From NCBI GenBank assembly GCA_965279195.1, contig CBDIHP010000042.1:172317-236316 (forward strand): 64,000 nt of DNA, written 5' to 3'. This DNA comes from Isosphaeraceae bacterium. Lineage in GTDB: Bacteria > Planctomycetota > Planctomycetia > Isosphaerales > Isosphaeraceae. Below, piece after piece: positions 7,498 through 44,010 of this stretch. Position 1 is the stretch's first letter. Every line of letters begins with the position of its first letter. The notes beneath the pieces are model-generated. The model had not been told where the DNA came from. It saw only the letters and a program-made list of their open reading frames with translations, and ran no database searches. The translations under genes and the position numbers were made by a program.

Positions 7498-7529
7498 CCC
7501 GTCCGAGCTTCCTCGAACCTGGAAATCGC

Positions 7530-7575
7530 GACCGGCCGGCCTCGGGGCAACCCAGGGCCGGCCGGTTTCGTTTGG
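7530..7575 (+). terminator. Rho-independent terminator-like hairpin downstream of the M50-HlyD gene.
   Basis: ACCGGCCGGCC-tcggggcaacccag-GGCCGGCCGGT followed by TTCGTTT. Confidence 0.5.
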
Positions 7576-8208: not shown

Positions 8209-11200
8209 TCAGCCGTTGCTGGTCTTCTTGGCCGAATTCTGGCTCGCCAGCGACTTCAGGGAGTCCACGATGGACTGCGCGGTGTTGCCGTCGCCGGTCG
8301 TCGTCGTGCTCGCCGTGGTCGTGGTCGTCGGCGTGGTGGTCGTCGGGGTGACGATCACCGGGGTGGTCTTCTTGGCGACCGTGGTCTTCTTCGCGGTCTT
8401 CGTCGCCTTGACCGGGGCGCTGAAGAGCGAGTAGACCGGGCCGTTGGTCGTGTTGGGCTGGAGGCCCTTGTTCACGCCGAAGGAGGCCGGCGTCCGCTTG
8501 GCGTAACCCTGGACCTTGCTCTTCGGCACGAACATGTAGGTCGGCTTCAGATACTTGAGGTCGTTGAAGTTACGCTTGGTGTCGGGTGCCAGGAGGTACC
8601 CGTTCGCGCTGGCCCGCTGGCGGTCGACCACGACGTACTGGTCGGGTTGCGGGAGCAGCTTGGTGGAGAGCATCTTCAGGGAGTCGATCGAGACCGCCCC
8701 GTTGAGGTCGCCGTCGGCCGCGTAGTCGAAGTAGTTGAACCGGCGCTGGAGGGCGTCGGGCTGCTCGGGCGTGTCGCCGGTCAGGCCGGTCGAGGTGAAC
8801 CCGTTCTGGTCGTTGGTCGCCGCCCGGGCGGTGCCGCCCAGGAGCCTCGCCATCGCACCGTCCTCGGGCAGGCCGAGGCGGGCCGAGTCGTCCACGAAGG
8901 TCTGGATCTCCTGCGCGGTGATCAGGCCGTTGTGGTTCGTGTCGATGATGTCGAAGGCGTTGTGGGCGAACAGGTACTGCAGGGCGACGGTGCCCTCGAT
9001 CGACGCGACGGCGTTGCCGACGTCGACCCGGGCGTAGCTGCGGAACTGGGTGCTGTCCCCCTTGAGCCGGAACGGCCCGGACTGGCTCTGGCCGTCGTTG
9101 ACGTCGGTCGCGGCGACCGCGGTGTACGCCAGGATCCCGTTGATGCCGTCCGGGGTGTTGTACGGCGTCAGGTTGGCGAAGGCGTTGGTGCCGAAGTTCA
9201 GCGTCTTGACGCCGACCGGCTGGGTCAGGTACGCGTCGGCCGTGCTCGCCGTGGTCAGCTGGTTGGTCCAGTATTGCAGGGCGGACGACACGACGGCGTA
9301 GGAGCCGGTGACGATGCCGGCCGAGAGCGAGGTACCGCCCGCGGTGTAGGTCATCGTGAGGCTGGCGTCGCCGACGAATCGGCGTCGGAAGGTCGGCACG
9401 TCGAGGGCCGGGGCCGCGAAGTCGGTCGTGACCGAGCGGTTGGCCGCGCCCAGGACGCGGTCGCTGTAGAAGACGCCGGCCCCGGTGTTGGCGCTCGCAC
9501 CGCCGTTATTGCCGTTGCCACCGCCGTTGCCGCCGCCGGTGGTGGTCCCGCCGCCTTCGGCCGCCGTGAGGGTGCCGAGGGAGTTGGGCTGGACCGAGGC
9601 GTTGGTGGTGCCGGTGTTGCCCGTGGTCGTGGTGGTGCCGCCCGGCGAGCTGGTGCCGCCGAAGACGAGGACCGGGCCCTGGACCCGCGGGATGAGCGTG
9701 TTCGCCGGGTCGGTCGGGATCGAATCCGGCTGCCCGAGGTACGGGAACGGATAGACGCCGGTGACCGAGATCACCTCGTTGAGGATCGCCGGCAGCGACA
9801 TGCCGTTGACGTCGCCGACGTTGGCGCTCTGGTTGCTGTTGGTGAAGCCGGTGTTGCTCGTCCCGGTGCCACCGCCGTTGCCGCCGTTGCCGCCGTTGCC
9901 GCCGCCGCCGGTGTTGAGCGGGGCGCCGAACTGGCCGGCCGCGGCGATCGGGGCGATGCCCAGGTCGCGGAACTTCTTGAACTGGTTCTTGAAGGCGATC
10001 ACGATCTGCGGGTAGCGGCGGAACGCGGTCCCTTCGGAGTCGAAGGTCTCGCTGGTGCCGAACCCGATCGTGGCGGCGATGACGCGGTCGGTCTGGCCCG
10101 GGCGGACCGGGTCGGCGACATACGGATGCGCGGCGGTGTAGGCGAAGCCGTTGTAGACGGCGTTGGTGCTGGTCAGGGTGTTGGTGACGATCGTCGTCGT
10201 GCCGCCGCCGTTCCCGTTCCCGCCGCCGCCGCCGGTCGTGCCGCCAGTGTTGCCCGCGTTGAACGGGTTGAAGGCCGAGACCGGATTCAGGGTGGCCTGC
10301 GGGACGAACTGCGAGACGACGCCGGCGACCAGCGTGCCGTGGCCATCGGCCGTGGTCGGGATCGACGCGCCGCCGGTGGTGCCGTTGTTGCCGTTGTTGC
10401 CGTTGCCGGTCGCGGCCGTGGTGGCGAGGCCGGCGGCGTAGTCGTCGTTGCCTGTGCCGTTGGTCAGGACGTTCTTGCCCGGCGCCACGCGGCCGCGGAA
10501 GCCGGGGGACGTGGCGTCCACGCCGGTGTCGAGGATCGTGACGGCGCTGTTCTGGCCCTCATACGGGACGCCGAGGGTCCGCAGGTCGTTGAGGCCGACG
10601 AGCGAGCCGCTGGTCGAGCCGGCGAGGCTGGCCTGCGTCTTGAACTGCCAGATGCCGTCGTTGTCGGCGGCGTACAGGGTCGTGCCGTCGGCCGAGAAGG
10701 TGATGCTCAGGCTCGACGACGTGAACGAGCTCGAGTCGAACGCGTTCGAGGTGTTGAATCCGGTCGCGAACGGGGTCACGACGCCGGTCGGGCTGATCCG
10801 GACGATACGCCCGCCGAGCGACCCGCTCGAGGCCGAGATGATCTGGTTGCCGGCCGAGTCGAGGGTCGCGCCCGCACCGCCGGGGCCCTGGACCGGGATG
10901 ACCGTCACCTGACCGGTGGTGGTGCCCGGGGTCGGGACGGTGGTCGCCAGGCCGCTCGCCAGGTCGCTCACGAACAGGCTGCCGACATACTGCACCGCAC
11001 CATACGTGAAGTTGGTGGTGGTGCCGGTGGTGCCGGTGGTCGTCGTGCTGGCCGAGGTCACGACCACGCCGTTCGAGAAGTAGCCGTACTTGTCGAACGC
11101 GGTGTCCTGGAAGCGGCGCAGGTTGGTGTCGGCGACCGTGAAGCCATCGACGCTGCCGCCGGTCCCGAGCGTGAAACCCGTCGGCTGGGTGCCGGTGCTG

Positions 11201-12297
11201 GCGACCGTCGAGGTGGTGCCGGTGCCGATCAGGAGGCCGCCGCCGAGGCCCTGGACCCCGGAGAACCCGGCCGTCTGCGGGAACGGGTTGCCGGAATCGG
11301 GCGGGAAGGCCGGGACGCCGAAGTCGGTGAAGGCCGAGTAGACCTGCGACACGTAGTCGGTGTTCGTGCTGGTCGAGGCCAGGCCGACCTGGGGTCCGAG
11401 CGTCAGCGCGGTGTTCTTGACGCCCGGGGGGAGCGTCGGCGTGCTGATGTTCTGGCCGGGCTTGTACTGGTTGGCGTCGAAGAACAGGGCGGCGAACTGG
11501 GTGTTCGACGTCGTGTTCTGGACGGTGCTCGAACCCGTGCCCGTGCCCGAGATCAGCCCGCGGAGGAACGACTGCTGCTCGGCCGGCGGCACGAGGATCG
11601 CCGACGGATTGATCGAAAGCCGGGTCCCCTTCAGGCTGCTGTCGCTGTAGGTGACGAACGCCCCCAGGAAGGAGCCGTCGGGGCCGATCCGGTAGATCGC
11701 GTTCTTGGTCGGGTCGGTCGAGTCGACCGTCGAGACGAACATCGACGACCGGCCGTCGAAGTAACCTTCGGGGTCGAACGTGACGTCATACCAGTTCACG
11801 AGCCCCGTGCCGGTGCCGGCCGAGTTGGCGGCGCTGGTGGCGCTGGGGTTCAGCTGGGGGATGACGGTGTTGAGGTCGAAGAACACTGACGCCTTGCCGG
11901 TGGCCGGGTCCACGCGGTAGATCACGCCGGGGCGGTTGATGGCCCCGGTGTTGGAGCCCGCACCGCGCGAGACGGCGTAGATGCCCTTGCCGAAGTCGCC
12001 GCCGGGGCCGGCCTCGATCCGGACGATGTCGCCGCCGAACTGGTTGATCGGCGTGAGCTGAGACACCGAGGTGAACGGGGCGGCCGACGCGAACGTCGAG
12101 GTCCCCGTCGTCTGCGTCGTGATGGTGACGTTGCCCACGGAGGGCGTCCCCGCGTTCGCCGTGAATGTGGCGGACGTCGGGAAGGTCGCCAGGACCGGGG
12201 TCAGCACCTCACGGATTTCCAGGTGCTGGACTTCCAGCCGGACTTCGCGCTTCTGCCGCGAGGGGCCTCGCGCCTTGGGTCGGGATGGGTGAGACAT
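8209..12297 (-). CDS. Subtilisin-like serine peptidase (S8 family), 1362 aa. It has long Gly/Thr/Asn-rich low-complexity inserts, C-terminal dockerin/EF-hand-like Ca-binding repeats and a Lys/Thr-rich tail.
   Basis: Catalytic triad motifs: ILDTGVD (Asp), HGTLVAGVVS (His), GGTSLSAGIVTG (Ser). Dockerin-like repeats: DTNHNGLITAQEIQTFVDD and DYAADGDLNGAVSIDSLKML. C-terminal tail: KTAKKTTVAKKTTPVIVTPTTTTPTTTTTASTTTTG. Confidence 0.8.
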   Translation of the reverse strand: MSHPSRPKARGPSRQKREVRLEVQHLEIREVLTPVLATFPTSATFTANAGTPSVGNVTITTQTTGTSTFASAAPFTSVSQLTPINQFGGDIVRIEAGPGGDFGKGIYAVSRGAGSNTGAINRPGVIYRVDPATGKASVFFDLNTVIPQLNPSATSAANSAGTGTGLVNWYDVTFDPEGYFDGRSSMFVSTVDSTDPTKNAIYRIGPDGSFLGAFVTYSDSSLKGTRLSINPSAILVPPAEQQSFLRGLISGTGTGSSTVQNTTSNTQFAALFFDANQYKPGQNISTPTLPPGVKNTALTLGPQVGLASTSTNTDYVSQVYSAFTDFGVPAFPPDSGNPFPQTAGFSGVQGLGGGLLIGTGTTSTVASTGTQPTGFTLGTGGSVDGFTVADTNLRRFQDTAFDKYGYFSNGVVVTSASTTTTGTTGTTTNFTYGAVQYVGSLFVSDLASGLATTVPTPGTTTGQVTVIPVQGPGGAGATLDSAGNQIISASSGSLGGRIVRISPTGVVTPFATGFNTSNAFDSSSFTSSSLSITFSADGTTLYAADNDGIWQFKTQASLAGSTSGSLVGLNDLRTLGVPYEGQNSAVTILDTGVDATSPGFRGRVAPGKNVLTNGTGNDDYAAGLATTAATGNGNNGNNGTTGGASIPTTADGHGTLVAGVVSQFVPQATLNPVSAFNPFNAGNTGGTTGGGGGNGNGGGTTTIVTNTLTSTNAVYNGFAYTAAHPYVADPVRPGQTDRVIAATIGFGTSETFDSEGTAFRRYPQIVIAFKNQFKKFRDLGIAPIAAAGQFGAPLNTGGGGNGGNGGNGGGTGTSNTGFTNSNQSANVGDVNGMSLPAILNEVISVTGVYPFPYLGQPDSIPTDPANTLIPRVQGPVLVFGGTSSPGGTTTTTGNTGTTNASVQPNSLGTLTAAEGGGTTTGGGNGGGNGNNGGASANTGAGVFYSDRVLGAANRSVTTDFAAPALDVPTFRRRFVGDASLTMTYTAGGTSLSAGIVTGSYAVVSSALQYWTNQLTTASTADAYLTQPVGVKTLNFGTNAFANLTPYNTPDGINGILAYTAVAATDVNDGQSQSGPFRLKGDSTQFRSYARVDVGNAVASIEGTVALQYLFAHNAFDIIDTNHNGLITAQEIQTFVDDSARLGLPEDGAMARLLGGTARAATNDQNGFTSTGLTGDTPEQPDALQRRFNYFDYAADGDLNGAVSIDSLKMLSTKLLPQPDQYVVVDRQRASANGYLLAPDTKRNFNDLKYLKPTYMFVPKSKVQGYAKRTPASFGVNKGLQPNTTNGPVYSLFSAPVKATKTAKKTTVAKKTTPVIVTPTTTTPTTTTTASTTTTGDGNTAQSIVDSLKSLASQNSAKKTSNG

Positions 12298-24415: not shown

Positions 24416-24615
24416 CCCCGGAGTGCGGAAGCTTGCTTCCGCTCTGGCCCGGCGGGAGCTCGCTCCCGAGAGTCCGCATTGACTCGACAGGCTGGAGCTT
24501 CGTCAGGGCACGCGGAGCAAGCTCCGCGAGAACCGAGCGGAAGCGAGCTTCCGCACTTCATGCCTCCGGAACTGCTTGACCAAACGAACCCACCTGCCAG
24601 ATTGGCAGGCCGGGA

Positions 24616-31387: not shown

Positions 31388-32554
31388 TTGTTTCGATCTG
31401 TCCCGATAGAGCCCGACGGGGCCTCGCCCCGGGCGGGAGGTGTGACCGTGTCCCTGCTCAAGCGTATCCAGATCCGATCTTACGAGGTCGGCCTCCAGTT
31501 CCAGGATGGCGAGTTTCTCGGCCTGCTCGGGCCCGGCACCCACTGGGTGTTCGACCCGTTTCGCCGGAAGTCCGTGGACGTCGTCTCGCGGCGCGCACCG
31601 CGATTGCTCCACGAGAAGCTCGACCTGATCGCAGCGTCCGGCGTTCTCAAGTCCGAGGCGACCGTGGTCGACCTCAAGGACGACCGCCGCGCCCTGGTCT
31701 GGATCGACGGCCGGTTCGCGACCGTGCTGGGGCCGGGCCTGCACGCCTTCTGGAACGGGTCCAAGGAGGTCCGCGTCGAGCTGGTGAACGCCGGCAAGGT
31801 GCGGTTCGAGCACGAGGATCTCAAGGTCATCGCCCGCGCGTCCGGCTCGAACATGCTCCTCGACGTCTGCAACGTCAAGCGCGACGGCGCGGGCGTGGTC
31901 TACATCGACGGCCGCTACGTCGAGACCGTCGGGCCGGGCCTGCACGCCTTCTGGCGGGGTGCGTCGGACGCGACCGTCGTCGAGGTGGACCTCCGTGAGA
32001 CGACCCTGGAAGTCGGCGGGCAGGACATCATGACGGCGGACAAGGTCACGCTGCGCGTCAACGCGCTCGTCACCTACCGCGTCATCGACCCCCGCCGGGC
32101 CGTCTCGACGACCGAGGACCTCAAGCAGTCGCTCTACCGCGAGGCCCAGCTCGCCATCCGCGCGGTGGTCGGGGCCCGGGAGCTGGACGTCCTGCTCAAC
32201 GAGAAGGACACCATCGCCTCCGAGGTCGCCGAGATCCTCCGGCGCCGGCAGGAGGAGCTGGGCGTCGAGATCCTCACGACCGGCCTGCGGGACGTGATCC
32301 TGCCCGGCGACATGAAGGAGCTGATGAACAAGGTCATCGAGGCCCGCAAGGCCGCCGAGGCCAACCTCGTCACCCGCCGCGAGGAGACCGCCGCCCTGCG
32401 GAGCCAGGCGAACACCGCGAAGCTCCTTGCCGACAACCCCGTCCTCATGCGGCTCCGCGAGCTGGAAGTCCTGGAGAAGGTCGCCGGAGGCGGCAAACTC
32501 AACGTCGTCCTCGGCGAGAAGGGCCTCGCCGATCGCATCGTGAACCTGATCTAG
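31388..32554 (+). CDS. SPFH/band-7 (stomatin/flotillin-like) domain protein.
   Basis: SPFH-like core: DKVTLRVNALVTYRVIDPRRAVSTTEDLKQSLYREAQLAIRAVVGARELDVLLNEKDTIASEV. C-terminal coiled coil: ARKAAEANLVTRREETAALRSQANTAKLLA. The exact start is uncertain; it may be a GTG near 31445. Confidence 0.7.
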   Translation: MFRSVPIEPDGASPRAGGVTVSLLKRIQIRSYEVGLQFQDGEFLGLLGPGTHWVFDPFRRKSVDVVSRRAPRLLHEKLDLIAASGVLKSEATVVDLKDDRRALVWIDGRFATVLGPGLHAFWNGSKEVRVELVNAGKVRFEHEDLKVIARASGSNMLLDVCNVKRDGAGVVYIDGRYVETVGPGLHAFWRGASDATVVEVDLRETTLEVGGQDIMTADKVTLRVNALVTYRVIDPRRAVSTTEDLKQSLYREAQLAIRAVVGARELDVLLNEKDTIASEVAEILRRRQEELGVEILTTGLRDVILPGDMKELMNKVIEARKAAEANLVTRREETAALRSQANTAKLLADNPVLMRLRELEVLEKVAGGGKLNVVLGEKGLADRIVNLI

Positions 32555-32557
32555 TCG

Positions 32558-32681
32558 GGTGGGCACCGCCCACCGCAACAGACGCCCGCATGAACATGCC
32601 AAGGAGCATGTTCATGCGGGCGTGTTGCTTGGGTTTGATGCGTCACGGAACGGCCGATGTTGCGGTGGGCCGTGCCCAACC
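32558..32681. terminator. Nested palindromic structure between convergent genes: an inner 15-bp-stem hairpin flanked by ~21-bp imperfect outer inverted repeats.
   Basis: Inner: CCCGCATGAACATGC-caaggag-GCATGTTCATGCGGG (32585-32620). Outer: GTGGGCACCGCCCACCGCAAC ... GTTGCGGTGGGCCGTGCCCAAC. Confidence 0.5.
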
Positions 32682-33910
32682 TACCGGGGCCCAATGACCA
32701 TGATGCCGTGGATGCCGGGCTTGTCCTTCTGGGCGTCGTAGTCGAATTGGGGGCGGATCGGGACGTAAAGGCGTTTGCCGTCGGTGATCGGGGCCTCGAC
32801 CTGCTCGCCATCGTTCCGGGGGCGGTATCGCCACCGGAGGCGGCCGTCGCTGCGGTTGAGGGCGTAGAGGTAGCCGTCATCGGAGCCGAAGTAAACGGCC
32901 GTCGCGTCGACGATCGGGGCTCCGCTGAGGAAATAATGCTTGTTGTCGGGGCGGCGTGGGGTCTCGTATTCCCAGATTTGCTTGCCTGTTTTCGCGTCGA
33001 TCCGGTAGCAGAAACCGTCGCTAGCCGCGCCGAAGATCGAGCCGTCTATGTAGGCGAGGTCGCCGTCGGCCCGCCAGCGGGTCTTGAAGCTCCAGGCGGG
33101 TTTGCCCGTGGCGACGTCGATGGCGTGGATCGAGCGATCCTGGCTGCCGACGAAGACCTTCCCGTCGGCCACGGTCGTCCCCGAACCGATCCACCCTTTC
33201 GTCTGGTAAGACCAGACCGTCTTGCCGGTCGCGAGGTCGAGGGCGATGACCCGGCACTGGTCGAAGATCGGCAGGTAGGCTCGCGTGCCGTCGCTGGAGG
33301 CCGAGCCCGGCCTGGCGCGGTTCTGTCCGATCCGGGCCTTGGCGCCGTCGAAGCCTTTCGGGTCGGGAGGCGCGTCCTTGACGATGTCGACCTTCCAGAG
33401 TTCCTTCCCCGACTTCGCATCCAACGCATAGGCGAATCCGTCGTCGCCCCCGACGATCAGCTTGCCCGCAACCACGAGGGGCGTGCCCCCGGCCCCTCCG
33501 TCGATCGTGAAACTCCAGGCATCCTTGCCGTCCTCGGCGCGACAGGCGGTCACGCCTCGATTGGAGGCAAGGTAAACCAGCCCGTCGACGACCGTCGGGG
33601 CCATGTAAACATCCCAGTCCGGGACCTCCTTGATCCAGATCTCCACGCCGTCACTGAGTCGGAAGGCCGCGACCGCCCCCTGGCGATTCCCCGCGATCAG
33701 GCGGTCTCCGGCGATGACGGCTTGCCCTGCACTCTTCTTGAGGTCGAGCCCCCACTCGGTGATCGGGGCGTCGGGGAGTTTCGCGTCGGGATAGGCACCG
33801 GCCCGCGCGGGCCCGCCCCGGGCGTGGCCGTCGTCGGCCGGTGAGGGCGACGGCCACGCGATCGCGAGTGCAGCCACGATGTAGATCTTCAGGGGGGGAT
33901 GAAGAGGCAT
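32681..33910 (-). CDS. Secreted PQQ-like beta-propeller repeat protein (BamB-like fold).
   Basis: Internal start MPLHPPLKIYIVAALAIAWPSPSPADDG is a signal peptide. Repeats: GKELWKVDI, GKTVWSYQTKGWIGSGTTVADGKVFVGSQDRSIHAIDVATGKPAWSF, GKQIWEYE, DGRLRWRY. Confidence 0.7.
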   Translation of the reverse strand: MPLHPPLKIYIVAALAIAWPSPSPADDGHARGGPARAGAYPDAKLPDAPITEWGLDLKKSAGQAVIAGDRLIAGNRQGAVAAFRLSDGVEIWIKEVPDWDVYMAPTVVDGLVYLASNRGVTACRAEDGKDAWSFTIDGGAGGTPLVVAGKLIVGGDDGFAYALDAKSGKELWKVDIVKDAPPDPKGFDGAKARIGQNRARPGSASSDGTRAYLPIFDQCRVIALDLATGKTVWSYQTKGWIGSGTTVADGKVFVGSQDRSIHAIDVATGKPAWSFKTRWRADGDLAYIDGSIFGAASDGFCYRIDAKTGKQIWEYETPRRPDNKHYFLSGAPIVDATAVYFGSDDGYLYALNRSDGRLRWRYRPRNDGEQVEAPITDGKRLYVPIRPQFDYDAQKDKPGIHGIMVIGPR

Positions 33911-33989: not shown

Positions 33990-35270
33990 CTACCTGGCCA
34001 ATCCGACGACGGCACTGGTCATGGCGCGGATGCCGTTGCGGATGCTGGGCTCGGCGTCGGGGTAGTAGAAGGGGGAGTGGAGCGAGGGCATGCCCTCGCC
34101 GGCGGCCTTGGCCTTGTCGAGGCGTTCCGGGGCGATGGTGCCGAGGCGGAACATGAAGATCGGGACGCCCCCCTGCTCGAACAGGCCGAAGTCCTCGGCC
34201 CCCATCGTGGGCTCGACCTCGACGAGATTCGCTTCGCCGAGAGCCTTCTTGAGGATCGGGACGACCTTCGCGACCAGGCCCGGGTTGTTGATCGTCGGCG
34301 GGGTGCCGTCGCTGATCGTGATCGTCGGCGCGGGGGCCTTGTGGGCGACGGCCAGGGCCTTCGCCCGGCGCTCGATGCCTTCCAGGAGCTGCGCCCGCAC
34401 GGGTTCCGAGAACGATCGCAGTGTGAGCTGCAACTGGACCCTGTCGGAGATGATGTTGTGCTTGGTCCCGCCGTGGATCGAGCCGACGGTCACCACCGCC
34501 GGGTGGATCGGGTTGACCTCGCGGGCGACGATGGTCTGGAGGTCGAGCACCAGGAGCGACGACAGCACGATCGGGTCGACCGTGTTGTGCGGCATCGCGC
34601 CGTGGCCCCCCTTGCCCCGGACGATCACGTCCACCGACGTCGAACTGGCCATCGCCGGGCCGGAGGTGTAGGCGATCTTGCCGACTTCCAGGTCGTGCGA
34701 GACGTGGAGCGCCAGGGCGTAATCCGGCCTGGGGAACCGGGTGTACAGCCCGTCGGCCAGCATCTCCTTGGCGCCGCCGATCTTCTCCTCGGCCGGCTGG
34801 CCGATCAGGACGACGGTCCCTTTCCACTGATCCTTGTGGGCCGAGAGCCAGCGGGCGACGCCGACGAGGCAGGTCATGTGGATGTCGTGCCCGCAGGCGT
34901 GCATCACGCCGACGGTCTTGCCCTCGTCGTCGACCGTCTGCACCTTGCTGGCGAAGGGCAACGGCGTGGCCTCGGTGACCGGCAACGCATCCAGATCCGA
35001 GCGGACGAGGATCGTCGGACCCTTGCCGTTCTTGATGACCCCGACCACCCCGAGCCTCCCGACCCCCGTCGTCACCTCCGCCCCGGCCTTCCTCAGCTCC
35101 TCGGCGATCGTCTTCGACGTCTCCTTCTCCTTGAATGATAGCTCCGGGTGCGTGTGCAGGTGCTTGTAGAGCCCGAGCAGCTCGGGCACCTGCGCATCGT
35201 ACCAGTCGTCGGCGAGGGAGACGCTGGGGACGAGAGCGATCGCGACAGCGAGGATCAACCGGCGGGTCAT
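33990..35270 (-). CDS. M20 family amidohydrolase/peptidase (hippurate-hydrolase-like M20D).
   Basis: Start MTRRLILAVAIALVPSVSLA is a signal peptide. Metal-binding motif VMHACGHDIHM, plus GGHGAMPHNTVDPI. Confidence 0.75.
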   Translation of the reverse strand: MTRRLILAVAIALVPSVSLADDWYDAQVPELLGLYKHLHTHPELSFKEKETSKTIAEELRKAGAEVTTGVGRLGVVGVIKNGKGPTILVRSDLDALPVTEATPLPFASKVQTVDDEGKTVGVMHACGHDIHMTCLVGVARWLSAHKDQWKGTVVLIGQPAEEKIGGAKEMLADGLYTRFPRPDYALALHVSHDLEVGKIAYTSGPAMASSTSVDVIVRGKGGHGAMPHNTVDPIVLSSLLVLDLQTIVAREVNPIHPAVVTVGSIHGGTKHNIISDRVQLQLTLRSFSEPVRAQLLEGIERRAKALAVAHKAPAPTITISDGTPPTINNPGLVAKVVPILKKALGEANLVEVEPTMGAEDFGLFEQGGVPIFMFRLGTIAPERLDKAKAAGEGMPSLHSPFYYPDAEPSIRNGIRAMTSAVVGLAR

Positions 35271-35330
35271 TCGGATACCTTCCCTTGTTCGAGCGATGAT
35301 GCGATTCTCACGCCGGGCGGGTCGGTCGAA

Positions 35331-35499
35331 TGCGCTGGGCGCGGGTCTCCAGACCCCGCCCCAACCGTCGATGCGCCGAACCAGCGAACCCGGTCTCCAG
35401 ACCGGTACCTTTTGCCTGGGAAGAAACGGGTCTGGGGACCCGGTTCGGTGGACTGCTTCGACGGATGCCAGAGCGGGGTCTGGAGACCCTCGCCCAGCG
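35331..35499. repeat. Large imperfect inverted repeat (~170 bp) with a recurring GGTCTCCAGACC / GGTCTGGAGACC core, in a divergent promoter region.
   Basis: Left arm GCGCTGGGCGCGGGTCTCCAGACCCCGCCCC...; right arm ...GGGGTCTGGAGACCCTCGCCCAGCGC is its near-exact reverse complement. Inner arms contain further CGGTCTCCAGACCGG / GGGTCTGGGGACCC copies. Mirrored peptides appear in antisense ORFs 35267..35545 and 35296... Confidence 0.6.
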
Positions 35500-35541
35500 C
35501 TCGCGATCGGCACTCAACACAGGTGCCGAGGTCGAGGCTCG

Positions 35542-35940
35542 TCAATCCAGCCCGTGCTGCTTGTTGAAGGCGATGGCCTTGGCCTGCTCGGCCTCGGGGA
35601 TCTTGCCGCAGCGCTGGTAGATCACGGACAGGGCGGTGTAGCTGAAGGTGTCGTCGGGTTCGAGCTCGACGACCTTCTTGGCGTGGAGGATCGCCTTGTC
35701 GACCTCGGCGAGGTCGGCGTAGAGCTTGGCGAGCATGCCGTGGGCGATGGCGAGGTTCTCGTCGACGACGAGCGACTCTTCGAGCTTGGCGATGGCGGCC
35801 GGCTTGTTGCCCGCGTCGCGGAGGTCCGTGGCCTGGTCGTACAACTCGATCGCGGTGGGCATCGGGGCAGACTCGTTCGGGGAGTTGAGGGAGCTTTCGT
35901 GCGGCAGGTCACGGTTGTCGCCGCGTCGGGAAGACGTCAT
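35542..35940 (-). CDS. Small TPR-repeat protein.
   Basis: C-terminal 106 aa: MPTAIELYDQATDLRDAGNKPAAIAKLEESLVVDENLAIAHGMLAKLYADLAEVDKAILHAKKVVELEPDDTFSYTALSVIYQRCGKIPEAEQAKAIAFNKQHGLD, which is TPR-like. The start could be 35940 (MTSSRRGDN...) or 35862 (MPTAIE...). Confidence 0.55.
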   Translation of the reverse strand: MTSSRRGDNRDLPHESSLNSPNESAPMPTAIELYDQATDLRDAGNKPAAIAKLEESLVVDENLAIAHGMLAKLYADLAEVDKAILHAKKVVELEPDDTFSYTALSVIYQRCGKIPEAEQAKAIAFNKQHGLD

Positions 35941-36006
35941 TGTAGTCCGTCGGCGACGGGGCCTGCCAGACCCGAGGCCTCGCCCGGAACCCACCCAGGA
36001 TCGACG

Positions 36007-37026
36007 ATGCGGTACAACAAACTCGGCCCCAGCGGCCTGCTCGTCAGCGAACTCTGCCTCGGCACCATGACCTTCGGCGAGGGCTGGGGATTCGGCGGGA
36101 TCGACGAACCCCAGGCCGATGCGATCCTCGGCGCGGCGCTCGACGCCGGCATCAACTTCGTCGACACGGCCGACGTCTACAGCGAGGGCAACAGCGAGAC
36201 CCTCCTCGGCAAGGCGCTGCACGGCGGGCGCCGGGACAGGGTCGTCCTCGCCACCAAGGCGTTCGGCAAGATGGGCACCGGCCCGAACGACTGCGGCCTC
36301 AGCCGCTACCACCTCGTCCGCGCCTGCGAGGACTCCCTCCGCCGCCTCGGCACCGACCGCATCGACCTCTATCAGATCCACGGCTTCGACCGGCTGACAC
36401 CGATCGAGGAAGTCCTGCGGGCGCTCGACCACCTCGTGCAGTCGGGCAAGGTGCTCTACGTCGGCATGTGCAACCTCGCGGCCTGGCAGCTCGCGACCAT
36501 GCTGGGCGTGTCCTCCCGGTTCGGCCTGAGCCGGTTCGTCAGCGCCCAGATGTATTACAGCCTCGTCGGCCGCGACATCGAGCACGAGGTCGTGCCCCTC
36601 TGCCAGCACGAGGGGCTGGGCATCCTCCCCTGGAGCCCCCTGGCCGGCGGGTTCCTGACCGGCAAGTATCGCCGCGAGCAGGAGGCGTTTCCCGAGGGCA
36701 GCCGCTACGCCACCAGCCGGTTCGGCGCCTTCCCGCCCGTCGATCGCGAGAACGGCTTCGACGCCGTGGATACCATCGTCGAGATCGCCGGGAAGCTCGG
36801 CACCGAGCCGACCACCGTCGCGATCAAGTGGTTGCTGACCCGCCCGGCGGTCACCTCGGTGATCATCGGGATCAAGCGCCTGGAACAGATGGCCGCGAAC
36901 GTCGCGTCGACCACGATGGAGATCCCCGCCGAGGATCTCGACCGGCTCAACAGCCTGACCGCCCCGCCCTCGCTCTACCCCAACTGGATGATCCAGCGCC
37001 AGGCGAACACGTCGGGCCGCAAGTGA
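36007..37026 (+). CDS. Aldo/keto reductase family oxidoreductase.
   Basis: MRYNKLGPSGLLVSELCLGTMTFGEGWG...INFVDTADVYSEGNSETLLGKAL...IDLYQIHGFD; canonical AKR motifs. Confidence 0.85.
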   Translation: MRYNKLGPSGLLVSELCLGTMTFGEGWGFGGIDEPQADAILGAALDAGINFVDTADVYSEGNSETLLGKALHGGRRDRVVLATKAFGKMGTGPNDCGLSRYHLVRACEDSLRRLGTDRIDLYQIHGFDRLTPIEEVLRALDHLVQSGKVLYVGMCNLAAWQLATMLGVSSRFGLSRFVSAQMYYSLVGRDIEHEVVPLCQHEGLGILPWSPLAGGFLTGKYRREQEAFPEGSRYATSRFGAFPPVDRENGFDAVDTIVEIAGKLGTEPTTVAIKWLLTRPAVTSVIIGIKRLEQMAANVASTTMEIPAEDLDRLNSLTAPPSLYPNWMIQRQANTSGRK

Positions 37027-37749: not shown

Positions 37750-40700
37750 ATGTCCACCTCCCCCAGCGACCGGATCCCCATCGACGACCTCGCCGAGGCC
37801 TTCCTCGCCAGGCGACGCGCGGGCGAGCCGGTCACGCCCGAGGAGTTCGCCGCCTCGAACCCCGACCTCGCCGAGGAGATCCTCGCCCTCTTCCCCGCGC
37901 TCGTGATGATGGAGGAACTCGGCAACGACTCGGGCGACCGCACGGCGACGGTCGCGGGGTCGTCGGGGAGCCTGCCGGCGGGCTTGCCGGTTCAGCGGCT
38001 GGGGGAATACCGCCTGCTGCGCGAGGTCGGACGCGGCGGGATGGGGATCGTCTACGAGGCCGAGCAGGAGAGCCTCGGGCGGCGCGTGGCGCTCAAGGTC
38101 TTGCCCGCCGGCGCCCTGGCCGACCCCAAGCAGGTCCGGCGGTTCACCCGCGAGGCGCGATCCGCCGCCAAGCTGCACCACACCAACATTGTCCCCGTGT
38201 TCGGCGTCGGCGAGTGCGACGGCACCCATTTTTATGTGATGCAATTCATCCAGGGCCAGGGGCTCGATTCGGTCCTCGACGAGCTGAAGCGGCTCCGCGG
38301 CCTGCGGGGCAACGGCGCCCGGACCCAGACCCGGCGCGAGGCCGGCGAGATCGCGCTCTCGCTCGCGTCCGGGCGGTTCGTCGATGCCGAGGCCCCCACC
38401 GTCCCCTCGGGCGGGCTCTCGGCGATCCGGTCGGGCAACATGTCGGGCTCGGCCACGGACGTCTCGACGCTCACCGAGACCGACCGCCGTTTCGCCCAGG
38501 GGGTCGCGAAGCTCGGCGTCCAGGTGGCCGACGCCCTGGCCCACGCCCACGGGCAGGGGATCCTGCACCGCGATATCAAGCCCTCGAACCTCCTGCTCGA
38601 TCGCGAGGGGAACGTCTGGGTCGCCGACTTCGGCCTGGCGAAGGCCGTCGGGGCGGACGACCTGACGCACACCGGCGACATCATCGGCACCGTCCGCTAC
38701 ATGGCCCCCGAGCGGTTCCGGGGCGAGGCCGATGCCCGTTCGGATGTCTATGCCCTCGGGCTCACTCTCTATGAGCTCCTGGCCCTCCGCCCGGCGTTCG
38801 ACGAGGGCGACCGCGCCAGCCTGATCCGTCAGGTCACCCAGGAGACGCCGCCGAGGCTCCGACGCATCAATCGCGCGGTGCCGCTCGACCTCGAGACCAT
38901 CATCCACAAGGCGATGGCCCGCGAGCCCGAGGGGCGTTACCGCTCGTCGCAGGACCTCGCCGAGGACCTCAAGCGGTTCCTCGACGGGCGGCCGATTCTT
39001 GCGCGCCGGGTGTCGACCGGGGAGCGGCTCTACCGCTGGAGTCGTCGCAACCCCGCGTTGGCCGCCGCGATGGGGGCGGTCGCCCTGCTCCTGGTCGCCA
39101 CGACCATCGCCGCCGTGATCGGCATGGGATTTTACCGGCACCAGGCCGAGATGGCGGACCTGGCCCGCCGCGAGTCGGACCTGCTGCGCGGCGAGGCCGA
39201 GCGTTCCCGCCGCGAGGCCGATACCCGCCGCGTCGAAGCCGAGGCCGAGCGGCAGCGGGCCGAGTCGAACCTGGCGGAGTCTCGCGAGAACCTCGCCCTG
39301 GCCCGCAAGGCGGTGGACGACTCGTTCACGAAGATCAGCGAGAGCAGCCTGCTCAACGTCCCTGGCCTGCGGCCGCTCCGGAAGGAACTCCTCGAATCGT
39401 CGCTGGGGTTCTATGAAGAGTTCTCCAAGCGTGCTCGGGGGACCGACCCGACCGTCGTCGCCGACCTCGCCGGCGCGCGGTACCGCGTCGGACGAATCCA
39501 GTCGGAGTTGGGGGTCCTGATCGAAGCCAGGGCCAATTATCAGGAATCTCTGGCCCTTTTCGAGCGGGCCCTCGGGGCGAAGGCCGCCGCGCCGTCAGCT
39601 CTCCGCGAACTCGGCGAGGTCTGGCACCGGCTCGGGGACCTGGACGCGTTGAATGGCCGCACCGGCCCGGCCCTCCCGGCGTACCTTCACGCCGTCTCGA
39701 TCCGCGAACGCCTGGCCCGGTCCGGCCCCCGATCGTCGCGGGATCGCCTCGACCTGTCCAGGTCGCTCAACGGGGTCGCGATCTCGACGGCCGACCGCGA
39801 ACAGCAACGCGATGCCTATCGGAGGTCTCTCGCTCTCCGCCTGGAGACGGCGAAAGATCTCACCGACGACCCCGATCTGCTCCACGGCCTGAGCGAGTCG
39901 TTCCTCAATTGCAGTGTGATCATCCGGGACGCAGGCTATGGCGAGGAGGCGCTGGAACTCGCCAGGCGGGGTCTGGACTACGGCCACGCCGGCCTCGCCC
40001 GACGGCCGCACGACATCGAATTCACGATGGACCTCGGGGGGCTCTACGGCCAGATCGCCGGCTACTGCTGGAACCTCGGGCGGGAGCGCGAGGCGCTCGA
40101 GCTCTCGGCGGAAGGGATCGGATTCGAGGTCGACGCGGTGGCGAAGAATCCGGAAGTCCCCGGATTCCGGTCGTACCTGGCGGATGTCCTGATCAAACGC
40201 CTGAATTTCCTCCGACCCCGGAGGCAGGCGGCGCCCGAGGCGGATCCGACCCGCCGGGCGGATCTCCTCGCGATCTTCGAGACGATCGTCTGGCTCCATG
40301 AGTCCGCGCCCCAGCCCACGAAGGACGGCCTGGCGCTGGCGGCGGCGGCGCACCTCCACCGGGCGGTCCTGCTCGCCGGAGTCGGGGCGCCTGCCTCGCC
40401 CGATGCCTGGTCGACGGAAGCGAAGGAGGAGAGGGTTCTCGGCTTCGTGGACCTGGATCGGGCCAAATCCAGGGGCATGTCGGAGGCCGAATTCGCCAGG
40501 GCGTATCCCGAACTCCGGGACCTCCTGGAGGGCACCCGACCCGAGAAAAAACGGTCGGGCGGTCGCGTGCCCGGGCCACCCACGTCGTGGCCGGTGCCCA
40601 GGAAAAGCGGCACCTCGCCCCTGGCGATTCCCGGCCGATTCGAGGAGGACCGCTCCTGCGCCGAACTCGTGATCGCGATCCTGCACCGCCTCGGCCGGGA

Positions 40701-43700
40701 CGGGGAGGAGGCCGATCGACGGATCCAGGCGCTCCTGGACGTGTGCGACGGGGCCGCGACTCAGCCACGATCGTCCTTCACGGAATGGCTCGCAATCCGC
40801 TGCCGGCTCCGGCTGGGCGGCCTGGCCTTCGAGCGCGGCGATCTCGCGACGGCGGCTGGGCACTGGGAGGCCATCCGGGCCACCTTCGACCGTTCGGATC
40901 GATACCGTCCCCAGCCGGCGGCATTGCGATGGAACCTCGGCACGGCCGCCGTCGTGGTCCGGAATGCGTACCTCTCGGTCGGCCTCTGGGAGGATGCCGC
41001 CGAATTCGACCGCATCGCCCTGGTGACCGGCGCGGCCGCATCGGGGTGGAACCTCCGCGAGTCCCCCGTGGTCGAGGCCCTTTGCGGAAACCTCGACGCG
41101 TCCCGCGATGCGATCTTCAAGGCGCTCCACGGTCTGGACGAGGATCACCCCAACGTGATCGACCTGCTCCGGGCAGGATCCATGCTGCATGAGACCTCGG
41201 ACCTGAAACGTCTCCTGGGCCTCGCGGGCCGGGTCCGATCCGCGAAGCCGTCCGACTGGAACGCCCGGATGGCCCTGGCCGAGTTGAGGCTCGCCGCGGG
41301 GAAGTACGACGACCTCCGGAGCATCCTGGGCGAGCAGACTCGCTACGAGAACGGTGCCGCCATCATGGCCCTCGCCGCCGCGCGACAAGGGCTCCGAGCC
41401 GAGGCGTTCCGCCGGCTCCGCCAGCTCGATGACGAGATGGCGACCGTCGCCCGGCAAAGCGTGCAGGCCCTGGGCGCGATCCGGCTGCCGCGTTCGACCA
41501 CCTCCGACCATTTCCTGGCCGAATGGCAGCGTCGGGAGGCCTACCGGCTCCTCGGCGAGAGACCGCCCGTGATTCGCCCCCTCGCGCTGTTGCGGGCGTC
41601 GTCGTTCTGGCGGCTCGGGCGTCGGGACGAGGCCGAGAAGGAATTCGAGAGATCGCTCCTCGACGCGGACGATCGCATCGCCGCCCTGACGGAACGGGCG
41701 AGGACATTCGCCTCGATCGGCCGGATGGACCGCGCGGTCGCCGACCTCGACGCCGCGAGGAGCCTCGACTCCAACGACGCCCGGCCCTGGATCCAGGAGG
41801 GGCGGCTCGCCTTCGAACGGGGAGACGTTCGGGCCGGCGAGCGGGCCTACGCCCGCGCCGGCGGGCTGCTCAAGGGCCGGATCGACCCGTTCTTCGACGC
41901 CGGCTGGTGGGCCGTCGGGCCGTTCCCGACGACGATGGACCTGCCCGAGGAGCCCGACCGATCCGCCGACCCCTCGCGGCCGGTCCGCTCCGGCAACCTG
42001 CGGCTGAACTGGAACGCCTTGCCGGTCCAACCGGACCACTTCGTGAACCTCCGGGCGATGCTGGTCCGGGACGGTTCGGCCTACCTGCTGACCCACGTCT
42101 ATTCCGAGGTCGAGCGAGCCGAGATGCTCGCCTTCGACGGCGGCGAGAACTTCCAGCTCTCGGTGAACGGCCTGCGGATCCTATCCGAGAACGAATCCGC
42201 ACCGCCGCTGGCGAACTTTCGGCATGTTTTCCACATCAGGCTTGTCCCGGGCCTGAACACGATCCTCGTGCGCGTCTCCCACAAGGCCGATGTCCCCTGG
42301 TTCCGCATGACGGCCGTCGACTCGCCCGCGGTCGTGGGGATGCTCCAGGCCGAGTTTGCCCGCTTCCCCGAGGCGGCGAACTCGCTCCTTCGGGCCGAGC
42401 GGGAAGGGCGTCTCCCGGGCGCGTGGTATCGGTTGTTCGTCTGCGACCTGCTCGAGTTCGCCGGCCGTCGGGACGAGCGCGAGAGGATCCTGGCCCGGCT
42501 CGTCGATCCGGACAGTCAAGCGGGGGCCGATCCCAGAGACCTTTCGCTCTCGCTCGCCTACCAGCCCCAGAACGTCGTCCCGCCGGACAGGGTGCTCGCG
42601 CTTGCGGAGAAGGTGGTCGCCTCGGAGCCCGACAACTTCTGGCTCAAGTTCCCCCTCGGTTATGCGTTGTATCGCGCCGGTCGCTATGACGACGCCATTC
42701 GGCATTTCCGGGCGAACTGGCCCCAGGGGGATGCCTACGAGAGGCCCGTCCGAGCGATGGCGCTGGCGAAGCTCGGCCGCAAGGATGAGGCAAAGGCGCT
42801 GCTCCGTGAGGTCGACGCCGACTTCGATGCCTGGTGCCGCGAGCGGGCCGGCGGCAAGGGGACGGCCTGGACCAACTGGTGGTTCGACGGCATCCGCCGG
42901 CTCAACCTCCGCCGCGAGGCGCACCGGGAGATCCTCGGCCGCCCGCCCGACGACTCCCCGGCACTCGATCGCATCCGGACTCAGATGGGCACGCTCCTCG
43001 ATCGGACCGACTCCCCGACCTGGAGCCTGGATGTGGCCCGGACGATCGACCCCAGGTCCCGCGCCGCAATGTTCGGCCTGGCCCAGCGGTTGATGAGACT
43101 CGGGCGCTACGACGAGGTCGCCCCTTTGATCGAGGAGGCCGTCGCTCGTGTGGGCCTGAGCCCGTCCGACTGGTCGCAAGGGAGTCTGCTGTACTCCTAT
43201 GCCGGACAGTTCGACCGCGCGGCCGATCTCTTCCTCAAGGCGTACGACCTCTACCCGACGGACAGCAGCTATTTCTCGGATCGAGGGTTCCTGATCTCCC
43301 AGTTCTTCTCCGAGTCCGAGGTCATGGAGCGCGTCCTGCTCCGACGGCCCGACGACCCATTCCTCCATTTCGTCCGGGGGATGGAGCGGTTGATTCGCCG
43401 CGACCTCGCCGGGGCGATCGCCGACTTCGAGCGAGGCGGCCCGAAGCCGCCCTCCGAACTGGCCTACATCCACGCCGCCGCCCTGCTACTGGCCGGTGAC
43501 GAGCCGGGGTATCGCCGGCTCGTGCAGAATCACGCGGCGCAGTTCGGCGACTCGAAGGATCGGGAGACATGCTACGTCCTGGCGAGGATGGCCGTTCTGG
43601 GGCGGACGCCCCCGGTCCCGGTCGGGCGGATCATCGGGTGGGCGAGGCTTGCGACCGAGGAGGGGAAGAATGGCTGGTCGGCCCACGTCTGGGCCCTTGC

Positions 43701-44010
43701 CTGCCTGAGGGCCGGTGACCTGTACGGTGCCCGCAAGGCCCTCTTCGACAGCCAGGCCTATGGCTGGGGCACCGGGATCGGCCTCAACCTGGTCGCCGAG
43801 GCGATGATCCTCCACGCACAGGGCCAGCCGGCCGACGCCCTCCGGGTGCTGGACGCGATCCCCGACCTCTACAGGAGTCCCCCTGCGACGCTCCGCTCCA
43901 CCCCCAATTCGCTCCATGCGGAGGACTGGATGGAATACGAGGTCCTCACGAAGCAGCTCCGCCCGGGCCTCTACGACGCGGTCTTCCCCGCCGATCCGTT
44001 CTCCCCCTGA
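37750..44010 (+). CDS. Serine/threonine protein kinase, 2086 aa, with a TM segment and a very long C-terminal TPR/helical-repeat region.
   Basis: Kinase subdomains: GRGGMGIVYEA, VALKVL, HRDIKPSNLLLD, DFGLAK, YMAPERFRGE. TM segment: ALAAAMGAVALLLVATTIAAVIGMGFY. More than 1500 aa of helical repeats follow. Confidence 0.85.
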   Translation: MSTSPSDRIPIDDLAEAFLARRRAGEPVTPEEFAASNPDLAEEILALFPALVMMEELGNDSGDRTATVAGSSGSLPAGLPVQRLGEYRLLREVGRGGMGIVYEAEQESLGRRVALKVLPAGALADPKQVRRFTREARSAAKLHHTNIVPVFGVGECDGTHFYVMQFIQGQGLDSVLDELKRLRGLRGNGARTQTRREAGEIALSLASGRFVDAEAPTVPSGGLSAIRSGNMSGSATDVSTLTETDRRFAQGVAKLGVQVADALAHAHGQGILHRDIKPSNLLLDREGNVWVADFGLAKAVGADDLTHTGDIIGTVRYMAPERFRGEADARSDVYALGLTLYELLALRPAFDEGDRASLIRQVTQETPPRLRRINRAVPLDLETIIHKAMAREPEGRYRSSQDLAEDLKRFLDGRPILARRVSTGERLYRWSRRNPALAAAMGAVALLLVATTIAAVIGMGFYRHQAEMADLARRESDLLRGEAERSRREADTRRVEAEAERQRAESNLAESRENLALARKAVDDSFTKISESSLLNVPGLRPLRKELLESSLGFYEEFSKRARGTDPTVVADLAGARYRVGRIQSELGVLIEARANYQESLALFERALGAKAAAPSALRELGEVWHRLGDLDALNGRTGPALPAYLHAVSIRERLARSGPRSSRDRLDLSRSLNGVAISTADREQQRDAYRRSLALRLETAKDLTDDPDLLHGLSESFLNCSVIIRDAGYGEEALELARRGLDYGHAGLARRPHDIEFTMDLGGLYGQIAGYCWNLGREREALELSAEGIGFEVDAVAKNPEVPGFRSYLADVLIKRLNFLRPRRQAAPEADPTRRADLLAIFETIVWLHESAPQPTKDGLALAAAAHLHRAVLLAGVGAPASPDAWSTEAKEERVLGFVDLDRAKSRGMSEAEFARAYPELRDLLEGTRPEKKRSGGRVPGPPTSWPVPRKSGTSPLAIPGRFEEDRSCAELVIAILHRLGRDGEEADRRIQALLDVCDGAATQPRSSFTEWLAIRCRLRLGGLAFERGDLATAAGHWEAIRATFDRSDRYRPQPAALRWNLGTAAVVVRNAYLSVGLWEDAAEFDRIALVTGAAASGWNLRESPVVEALCGNLDASRDAIFKALHGLDEDHPNVIDLLRAGSMLHETSDLKRLLGLAGRVRSAKPSDWNARMALAELRLAAGKYDDLRSILGEQTRYENGAAIMALAAARQGLRAEAFRRLRQLDDEMATVARQSVQALGAIRLPRSTTSDHFLAEWQRREAYRLLGERPPVIRPLALLRASSFWRLGRRDEAEKEFERSLLDADDRIAALTERARTFASIGRMDRAVADLDAARSLDSNDARPWIQEGRLAFERGDVRAGERAYARAGGLLKGRIDPFFDAGWWAVGPFPTTMDLPEEPDRSADPSRPVRSGNLRLNWNALPVQPDHFVNLRAMLVRDGSAYLLTHVYSEVERAEMLAFDGGENFQLSVNGLRILSENESAPPLANFRHVFHIRLVPGLNTILVRVSHKADVPWFRMTAVDSPAVVGMLQAEFARFPEAANSLLRAEREGRLPGAWYRLFVCDLLEFAGRRDERERILARLVDPDSQAGADPRDLSLSLAYQPQNVVPPDRVLALAEKVVASEPDNFWLKFPLGYALYRAGRYDDAIRHFRANWPQGDAYERPVRAMALAKLGRKDEAKALLREVDADFDAWCRERAGGKGTAWTNWWFDGIRRLNLRREAHREILGRPPDDSPALDRIRTQMGTLLDRTDSPTWSLDVARTIDPRSRAAMFGLAQRLMRLGRYDEVAPLIEEAVARVGLSPSDWSQGSLLYSYAGQFDRAADLFLKAYDLYPTDSSYFSDRGFLISQFFSESEVMERVLLRRPDDPFLHFVRGMERLIRRDLAGAIADFERGGPKPPSELAYIHAAALLLAGDEPGYRRLVQNHAAQFGDSKDRETCYVLARMAVLGRTPPVPVGRIIGWARLATEEGKNGWSAHVWALACLRAGDLYGARKALFDSQAYGWGTGIGLNLVAEAMILHAQGQPADALRVLDAIPDLYRSPPATLRSTPNSLHAEDWMEYEVLTKQLRPGLYDAVFPADPFSP

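Follow-up and report, generated by a model that had tools for sequence, protein, structure and literature searches.

A four-hairpin palindrome of probable REP type in the spacer of a TPR–M20 gene pair from an Isosphaeraceae-like planctomycete

We analyzed a 64,000-nt stretch of DNA, hereafter the window, in which a palindromic region separates the gene for a 106-aa TPR protein from the gene for a 426-aa M20 peptidase/amidohydrolase. The M20 product matches Pfam families PF01546 and PF07687, its reading frame is preceded by the ribosome-binding site (RBS) AAGGGAAGG, and a database protein of the same length (P0001, 426 aa) is 100% identical to it. Its closest named relatives belong to Isosphaeraceae, with 71% identity for Tundrisphaera and up to 75% for Isosphaeraceae metagenome-assembled genomes (MAGs). 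The TPR protein, recognized by TPR Pfam matches, shares 78% identity across 106/106 aa with its orthologue in Tundrisphaera lichenicola. Both genes are on the minus strand; the palindrome, therefore, lies in a co-directional spacer between the 3′ end of the TPR gene and the 5′ end of the M20 gene, 60–250 nt upstream of the latter. An earlier note on this DNA had assigned it to a divergent promoter region. This assignment does not hold, as the aldo-keto reductase is encoded on the plus strand, where its gene begins at about 36.0 kb and its domain near 36.05 kb, and the actual divergent promoter region is at about 35863–36040. A scan of 35000–35800 for sigma-70-like promoters yielded none. An open reading frame (ORF) that runs through the palindrome (33990–35513) was considered as an N-terminal extension of the M20 protein and rejected, because the orthologues and P0001 start at the ATG at 35270, where an RBS and a signal-peptide-like start are also located. 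Beyond the reductase region, the window contains a 2086-aa ORF (37750–44010) that encodes a Ser/Thr protein kinase domain at the N terminus and many TPR repeats after it; giant signaling proteins of this kind are typical of planctomycetes. The features of the locus and of a second copy of the palindrome are as follows.

33990–35270, minus strand: downstream gene, M20 peptidase/amidohydrolase, 426 aa
35323–35509, no strand: whole composite palindrome (REPIN/BIME-like), from inverted-repeat arms and paralogue alignment
35331–35361, plus strand: outer REP unit A, head GCGCTG, imperfect hairpin GGCGCGGGTCTCCAGACCCCGCC (REP HMM, E = 6.9e-8)
35385–35410, plus strand: inner unit B, hairpin CCGGTCTCCAGACCGG followed by TACCTTTT (terminator-like consensus match on the plus strand)
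35412–35420, no strand: 9-nt apical loop of the long hairpin with an A/T-rich center (gap between the inner arms)
35423–35447, minus strand: inner unit C, CGGGTCCCCAGACCCG, its core with one mismatch; TTTCTTCC comes next on this strand
35471–35499, minus strand: outer REP unit D, GCGCTG plus GGCGAGGGTCTCCAGACCCCGCT as read on the minus strand (REP HMM, E = 5e-7)
35500–35536, minus strand: small hairpin CGGCAC...GTGCCG directly behind the TPR stop codon, separate from the repeat
35542–35862, minus strand: upstream gene, 106-aa TPR protein
7680–7866, no strand: second, diverged 187-nt copy with GATCTCCCGATC cores (gapless identity 115/187)

An inverted-repeat search resolved the palindrome into nested arms. 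The outer arms (35323–35359 and 35473–35509) are 37 nt long, 86% complementary and 113 nt apart, a middle pair occupies 35362–35374 and 35455–35467, and the inner arms (35381–35411 and 35421–35451) are 31 nt long, 81% complementary and separated by a 9-nt loop. The 170-bp imperfect palindrome of the earlier note is, thus, real and far beyond chance, but its extent had to be revised: gapless alignment to a paralogue of exactly equal length at 7680–7866 places the limits at 35323–35509 (187 nt). The core GGTCTCCAGACC occurs exactly at 35344(+), 35392(+) and 35477(−) and with one mismatch at 35429(−), in agreement with the additional internal copies that had been reported. Allowing up to one mismatch, the window contains five such cores against 0.73 expected, a number reached in 0 of 100 shuffles. 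The core, GGTCT-CC-AGACC, is a 12-bp, 5-2-5 inverted repeat; previously described as palindromic, it is a near-palindrome only, with an asymmetric central CC/GG. Each unit is, therefore, oriented, and the four units, whose cores are spaced by 48, 37 and 48 bp, read + + − −.

The outer unit GGCGCGGGTCTCCAGACCCCGCC comprises a 6-bp apical stem, an internal mismatch and a 3-bp basal stem, and the 4-nt head of both outer units in the window is GCTG. Outer and inner units alike are short imperfect palindromes in the size range of REP/REPIN units (about 20–40 nt), and the columns of outer units A and D are invariant in alignment A2. Folded as RNA, the minus strand of the region reached −145 kcal/mol (z = −8.8) and the plus strand −151 kcal/mol (z = −10.5), and the minimum free energy (MFE) of the 187-nt element is −137.8 kcal/mol. 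The small hairpin at 35500–35536 is present in both MFE folds and has no counterpart in the 26–28-nt spacers of relatives; it lies within the extra spacer and outside the repeat proper. The flanks of the element, CGGGCGGGT and GCACTCAAC, contain no direct repeat, that is, no target-site duplication at 35323/35509. Two other classes of repeated DNA were considered and rejected. For an integron attC site, the box order is opposite to 5′-RYYYAAC ... GTTRRRY-3′ (the sequence starts with GYTSGGC and ends with GCCSARC on either strand), and the neighboring genes examined include no cassette array or integrase. A CRISPR array was dismissed as the spacer–repeat regularity is lacking.

Comparison with orthologous loci revealed that the palindrome is extra DNA in an otherwise compact gene pair. 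The TPR–M20 spacer measures 271 nt in the window versus 28 nt in T. lichenicola (L095), 26 nt in a 7.77-Mb ENA genome (L096) and 71 nt in a third contig (P0002), from which we conclude that the element is an addition. When the spacers are aligned, about 240 extra nucleotides of the window fall between the stop-proximal CCTCG and the RBS AAGGGA(A/G)G, both of which are retained. The element itself is absent from the orthologous loci of T. lichenicola and the ENA genome.

The paralogue at 7680–7866 aligns with 35323–35509 without gaps at 115 of 187 positions, compared to a background of 53 ± 6 and 77 for the next best position. The earlier note had made its reading depend on further copies of the terminal motif, and this copy provides one. 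In a whole-window inverted-repeat search, its arms span 7676–7716 and 7830–7870 (41 nt, with 113 nt between them), and its inner arms show the same 9-nt loop spacing. Both copies carry GCGCTGGGCG at identical offsets at both ends, giving termini of the pattern GCGCTGGGCG...CGCCCAGCGC; other GCGCTGGGCG matches in the window (12822 and 17452) fall in coding-like sequence without a palindrome and were taken as chance. All four cores of the second copy are changed to G(A)TCTCCCGAT(C), that is, GATCTCCCGATC, a variant found in none of the fetched family loci. Between the two copies, nine pairs of the long hairpin are kept by compensatory changes on both sides, which could reflect arm-to-arm copying rather than selection for structure. 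The second copy lies between the convergent genes 5302–7497(+), encoding an M50/HlyD protein that ends at 7497, and 8209–12297(−), encoding an EF-hand protein that ends at 8209. Both copies are, thus, extragenic and neither is at a promoter-defined position; the flanks of 7680/7866 likewise contain no direct repeat that would indicate a target-site duplication.

Three further palindromic structures were observed in the window. A G+C-rich hairpin with a T-rich tail, GACCGGCCGGCC...GGCCGGCCGGTTTCGTTT, follows just after the M50/HlyD stop codon (7524–7573). It is distinct from the REP-like element, which lies 100 nt beyond it, and is probably the true intrinsic terminator. A palindromic cluster at 24422–24557 consists of GCGGAAGCTTGCTTCCGC, GGGAGCTCGCTCCC, GCGGAGCAAGCTCCGC and GCGGAAGCGAGCTTCCGC, four small hairpins that belong to another family, and has outer arms of 34 nt and 82% complementarity; its presence suggests that several REP-like families exist in this genome. 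Directly after the stop codon of a Band_7/SPFH gene, at 32554–32684, inverted arms of the GGTGGGCACCGCCCACC type (27 nt, 89%) enclose a perfect hairpin with 18-nt arms (32582–32623); this structure might represent another palindromic element, the third, or else act as a strong terminator.

The earlier note had offered an operator array for a dimeric repressor as one interpretation, according to which four near-palindromic 12-bp sites would be bound by a dimeric transcription factor regulating the adjacent genes. The presence of four 5-2-5 inverted repeats at 48-, 37- and 48-bp spacing is consistent with such a function, as is the joint change of all four sites in the second copy to another palindrome, as if the specificity of a protein had been tracked. 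However, the site is not a divergent promoter but lies behind one gene and well upstream of the next, in a region without sigma-70-like promoters; orthologous operons do without the element, the second copy is situated between convergent 3′ ends, the neighboring genes examined include no regulator gene beside the element, and family members elsewhere have unrelated neighbors. We, therefore, abandoned this interpretation as extremely improbable.

The location between co-directional genes that are 26–28 nt apart in relatives raises a second alternative, namely a cis-acting RNA or terminator selected in place, be it a terminator, an attenuator or an mRNA stabilizer separating TPR and M20, in which function and not mobility would account for the palindrome. 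The low folding energy of the minus-strand RNA agrees with this alternative. So do the tails of the inner units, with unit C followed by TTTCTTCC on the transcribed (minus) strand and unit B by TACCTTTT on the other, both fitting the terminator-like consensus, and the position of the second copy, which is also 3′ of genes. On the other hand, no U-tract follows the long hairpin, the only tail being the weak TTTCTTCC of inner unit C, and neither this tail nor the T-rich center is conserved in the 7.7-kb copy. Additionally, an Rfam scan of 34800–36000 at E ≤ 10 returned no family match beyond chance hits of the miRNA/snoRNA type, with best scores of 12–20 bits compared to gathering scores of 48–100. 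The arms, moreover, recur in at least 120 unrelated contexts including tandem arrays, as described below, unlike a locus-specific regulator. We regard an RNA element selected in place as unlikely; an RNA-level role is compatible with a REP-type origin only as an exaptation, and the two are not mutually exclusive.

The arms belong to a large, dispersed family of small hairpin-forming repeats. A metagenome scan with the 22-mer GGCGNGGGTCTCCAGACCCCGC of the outer arm identified at least 120 loci. The family consensus reads GTTCGGCGmGGGTCTCCAGACCCCGCCG..GACCGnAGGTCTCC, with an abrupt loss of conservation directly 5′ of GTTC. A REP HMM built from 95 unique metagenome copies, over 80% of which have the head GTTC (GCTC or GTTG in relatives), detected both outer arms in the window (E = 7e-8 and 5e-7) and gave no further match there. 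Among the metagenome matches listed, 84 loci contain a single unit and 21 neighboring pairs are arranged head to tail, mostly 10–15 nt apart. Inverted pairs in this set occur 13 times in +− and never in −+ polarity, with spacers of 63–216 nt (12 of 13 at 63–117 nt). The outer pair of the window element, with +− polarity and 111 nt between the units, has the same layout as the fixed-polarity doublets that characterize REP/REPIN repeats. Full-length metagenome doublets of 119–178 nt share the outer-arm columns with the window element and contain a central GGTCTCC...GGAGACC hairpin. The window element is a member of this family with an enlarged center. Units almost identical to its outer arm were also present in two planctomycete MAG loci (L068 and L011). 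A blastn search of the 187-nt element against PLSDB plasmids and a 22-mer scan of viral contigs gave no match.

To look beyond the metagenome copies, a genome collection was scanned for two cores 20–50 nt apart. The resulting loci, at least 94, span Planctomycetota, Acidobacteriota, Chloroflexota, Armatimonadota, Verrucomicrobiota, Myxococcota, Gamma- and Zetaproteobacteria and others, a cross-phylum breadth that is inflated and permits no frequency to be derived because the scan selected for the core. The flanks resemble those of classical REPs, for example tGTAGGAGC-GGTCTCCAGACC-GCGAAt and cGTGGAACA-GGTCTCCAGACC-TGTTCGAG, often in inverted doublets. Among the genome loci listed, the motif GT[AG]G was located within 12 nt upstream of the oriented core in 120 of 246 cases and downstream in 17 of 246. 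Head-to-tail arrays of core units were noted in L068 (2968–3255), L156 (272–371), L020 (1–108) and L059 (2380–2448), with periods of 42, 39, 24 and 19 nt, respectively; some of these may be coding repeats and not REP clusters. The REP-like character proposed in the earlier note is, thus, supported, with a dispersed hairpin family that occurs as singlets, tandem arrays and fixed-polarity doublets, GT[AG]G heads in other phyla and, as detailed below, a RAYT gene flanked by same-core repeats in one locus.

The earlier note had also likened the structure to a MITE. In its classical sense, this would be a deletion derivative of a DDE-type insertion sequence (IS), moved as double-stranded DNA by means of its terminal inverted repeats. 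The element is short (187 nt) and extragenic, has 37-nt terminal inverted repeats, has at least two copies in the window and is missing at orthologous sites, all of which would be expected of a MITE. It differs in that neither copy has a target-site duplication, a feature that the earlier note had suggested checking at the flanks, and in that the would-be terminal inverted repeat is itself a hairpin, found mostly alone or head to tail with a 39–42-nt period, unlike MITE ends. Furthermore, no DDE transposase recurs beside family members, and the only transposases found there are RAYT-like Y1 enzymes. More generally, all-against-all clustering of ORFs from 214 REP-selected loci identified no recurrent neighboring protein; the clusters obtained consisted of duplicates from one locus or of spurious ORFs that run across the repeats. 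A classical MITE origin is, on this evidence, very unlikely.

With respect to a co-occurring transposase or regulator, which the earlier note had raised, the 64-kb window contains no Y1_Tnp/RAYT gene and the element has no adjacent regulator, but RAYT-like Y1 genes were found beside related repeats elsewhere. The clearest case is L074 from a Myxococcales MAG, whose Y1_Tnp gene product is 212 aa long and contains the motifs HVH and YxxLNPV. Inverted arrays of GTGGGGCCGGTGGTCTCCAGACCGTCGCA on both sides of this gene constitute a textbook RAYT arrangement; the locus belongs to a different phylum from the window and its flanks around the core differ. In L026, REPs are located 120–400 nt upstream of a Y1_Tnp gene, and in L137, a doublet lies between two Y1 genes. 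L192 encodes a protein with Y1_Tnp and a DnaA-C-type helix-turn-helix (HTH) domain; this protein shares 90% identity with one from an Isosphaeraceae MAG, and three units of exactly the window family lie 40 nt past its stop codon. For the proteins of all four loci, the best match was NCBIfam NF047646 (REP-associated tyrosine transposase), with the L192 protein above its cut-off. In L192, however, REPs are present on one side only, and no REPs were found beside four homologues of its protein (L217–L220 from Tundrisphaera, Aquisphaera and two MAGs; 63–77% identical). Because of this, the link to the L192 enzyme is possibly coincidental and we do not claim this protein as the mobilizer. Each of three homologues of the L074 RAYT has REPs of its own, with other sequences, on its flanks; the core is, therefore, not universal in that RAYT clade and REP identity is lineage specific.

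Several features of these loci were recorded in passing. Isosphaeraceae proteins with Y1_Tnp and DnaA-C-HTH domains, named RAYT by NCBI/JGI, have a conserved flank motif GGGGTCAGGC..TTTGTTTTTGGTTTT (L192 3640–3700, L218 3635–3800, L219 2400–2470, L220 2150–2240 and L098 2940–2975). As most of these proteins are encoded on 1–2-kb contigs and form clusters of up to 157 sequences, they look like multi-copy, IS-like elements and not like single-copy domesticated RAYTs. In L074 (4500–5955), a second, alternating repeat, GCGATAGTCAGAGACAATCGGCCCCAC, accompanies the GGTCTCCAGACC REP on the flanks of the RAYT gene; a 54%-identical homologue in L221 (1340–2340) is flanked by the related repeat AGTCAGCGATAACAGGGATGTTATCGGCTCC and has no GGTCTCCAGACC unit. 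Two Acidobacteriaceae loci, L008 (~3085–3140) and L012 (~2395–2450), have a hairpin repeat in common, CCCCGGTCCC-loop-GGGACCGGGG, which in L012 is near the 5′ end of a stop-to-stop ORF holding a RAYT-like gene. In T. lichenicola, an opposite-strand RVT_1 reverse-transcriptase gene (L217 558–1883) is found about 600 nt upstream of the RAYT-like gene; it may represent a group II intron or retron neighbor.

Weighing these data, we consider it likely that the palindrome is a non-autonomous REP-type (REPIN/BIME-like) repeat that was moved in trans by a RAYT and added to the TPR–M20 spacer. The hairpin anatomy and polarity, the family membership and dispersal, the lack of target-site duplications, the extra DNA in the spacer and the RAYT adjacency in related families come from observation, and the mobilizing enzyme of this genome and the effect on RNA are proposed. 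Points against this explanation are the lack of a RAYT gene in the 64-kb window and the head, which is GTTC, GCTC or GCTG and not the canonical GTAG; the number of copies in the 64 kb is two. REPs, REPINs and RAYTs, including those with non-canonical heads, have been described with coverage of Planctomycetes and Verrucomicrobia (PMC3733652, PMC3116915, PMC5581495), and REPs with degenerate heads were reported from both groups in 2013 (PMC3733652).

The proposed sequence of events would begin with a composite element, in which two outer REP units and two inner units, all of them short imperfect hairpins, follow the order + + − −, inserting into the short spacer of the conserved TPR–M20 pair in an Isosphaeraceae-like planctomycete. 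Each unit would fold as a hairpin on single-stranded DNA, and its stem, internal mismatch and TCTCC-containing apex would be recognized by a RAYT (HUH/Y1) that we infer to be encoded elsewhere in the source genome. The enzyme would cut next to the conserved 4-nt head, GYTS here and GTAG/GTGG in other lineages, and would move the doublet without generating target-site duplications. No such duplications are expected for HUH/Y1 transposition, as in IS200/IS605 and TnpA-REP, and the biochemistry of E. coli TnpA-REP forms part of the basis for the cleavage mechanism suggested here. After insertion, the TPR–M20 transcript would carry very stable hairpins between its two genes. By analogy with the effects of REPs and BIMEs on mRNA in Enterobacteria, these hairpins probably protect the upstream message from 3′ exonucleases, lower read-through into M20 or both.

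The closest known system is that of REPs/REPINs and their RAYTs (TnpA-REP) in E. coli, Pseudomonas and Stenotrophomonas (Di Nocera et al. 2013, PMC3733652; Bertels & Rainey 2011, PMC3116915). Shared features are a 20–30-nt imperfect hairpin unit with a conserved, unpaired 4-nt head, an extragenic position (seen for both window copies), an occurrence as singlets, tandem clusters and one-polarity inverted doublets with 60–120-nt spacers, the lack of target-site duplications, the probable coexistence of several families in one genome and, in L074, same-core repeats flanking a RAYT gene in inverted orientation. The window family differs in its head (GTTC/GCTC/GCTG, compared to GTAG with the literature variants GTGG and GYRG) and in forming a fixed-length four-hairpin composite of 187 nt instead of a simple doublet. 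Like the BIMEs of Enterobacteria, the element is a mosaic of REP-like hairpins in alternating orientation with conserved linkers, lies between genes that are co-transcribed or convergent and is able to form a larger hairpin in mRNA. There is, however, no sequence relationship, and the order is + + − − while that of BIMEs is strictly alternating. IHF, gyrase and Pol I are BIME-specific partners.

Hairpin-forming MITEs, such as Correia/NEMIS in Neisseria, ERIC in Enterobacteria and RUP/BOX in pneumococcus, resemble the element in size (100–200 nt), terminal inverted repeats, insertion into operon spacers and RNA-level effects, the last of which would apply to the window element by inference. In contrast, they have target-site duplications (for example, TA for Correia) and their ends are not known to occur as independent hairpins or tandem arrays. 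The subterminal hairpins of IS200/IS605 elements are likewise imperfect, with a mismatch or bulge, and are bound on single-stranded DNA by a Y1 HUH transposase. They reside within an autonomous element carrying tnpA (and tnpB), unlike the dispersed, gene-less repeats described here.

A more far-reaching idea concerns the GGTCTCC/TCTCC apex, which might be a deeply conserved determinant of one RAYT–REP lineage across six phyla (Planctomycetota, Acidobacteriota, Chloroflexota, Verrucomicrobiota, Myxococcota and Proteobacteria), through either ancient descent or repeated transfer. We rate this idea as speculative and unlikely. If true, a single genome would harbor the composite in two or more ‘specificity classes’, GGTCTCCAGACC and GATCTCCCGATC, with four cores switching in concert, and this would point to co-evolving enzyme–hairpin pairs or to an arm-to-arm homogenization not described for REPINs.

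REPs, REPINs, BIMEs and RAYTs are well known, and the window repeat adds a family of that kind. A literature search retrieved no paper with a GGTCTCCAGACC-type core in bacteria and none on REPs of Isosphaeraceae. The present work documents a REP/REPIN-type family whose head is not GTAG and whose four-hairpin architecture is fixed, occurring in Isosphaeraceae-like planctomycetes and in peat or soil metagenomes. It also removes a false lead, as there is neither an operator nor a divergent promoter at the palindrome, and accounts for the odd 271-bp spacer in a conserved two-gene unit by the presence of the element. Among its properties, the 187-nt four-hairpin architecture, the concerted core switch between copies and the occurrence of the same apex in REP-like repeats of many phyla stand out. 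Repeats of the REP type break assemblies, mark strain-level variation and can uncouple the expression of neighboring genes, and paired copies with concerted core changes represent a small natural experiment on the co-evolution of REP hairpins and their transposase.
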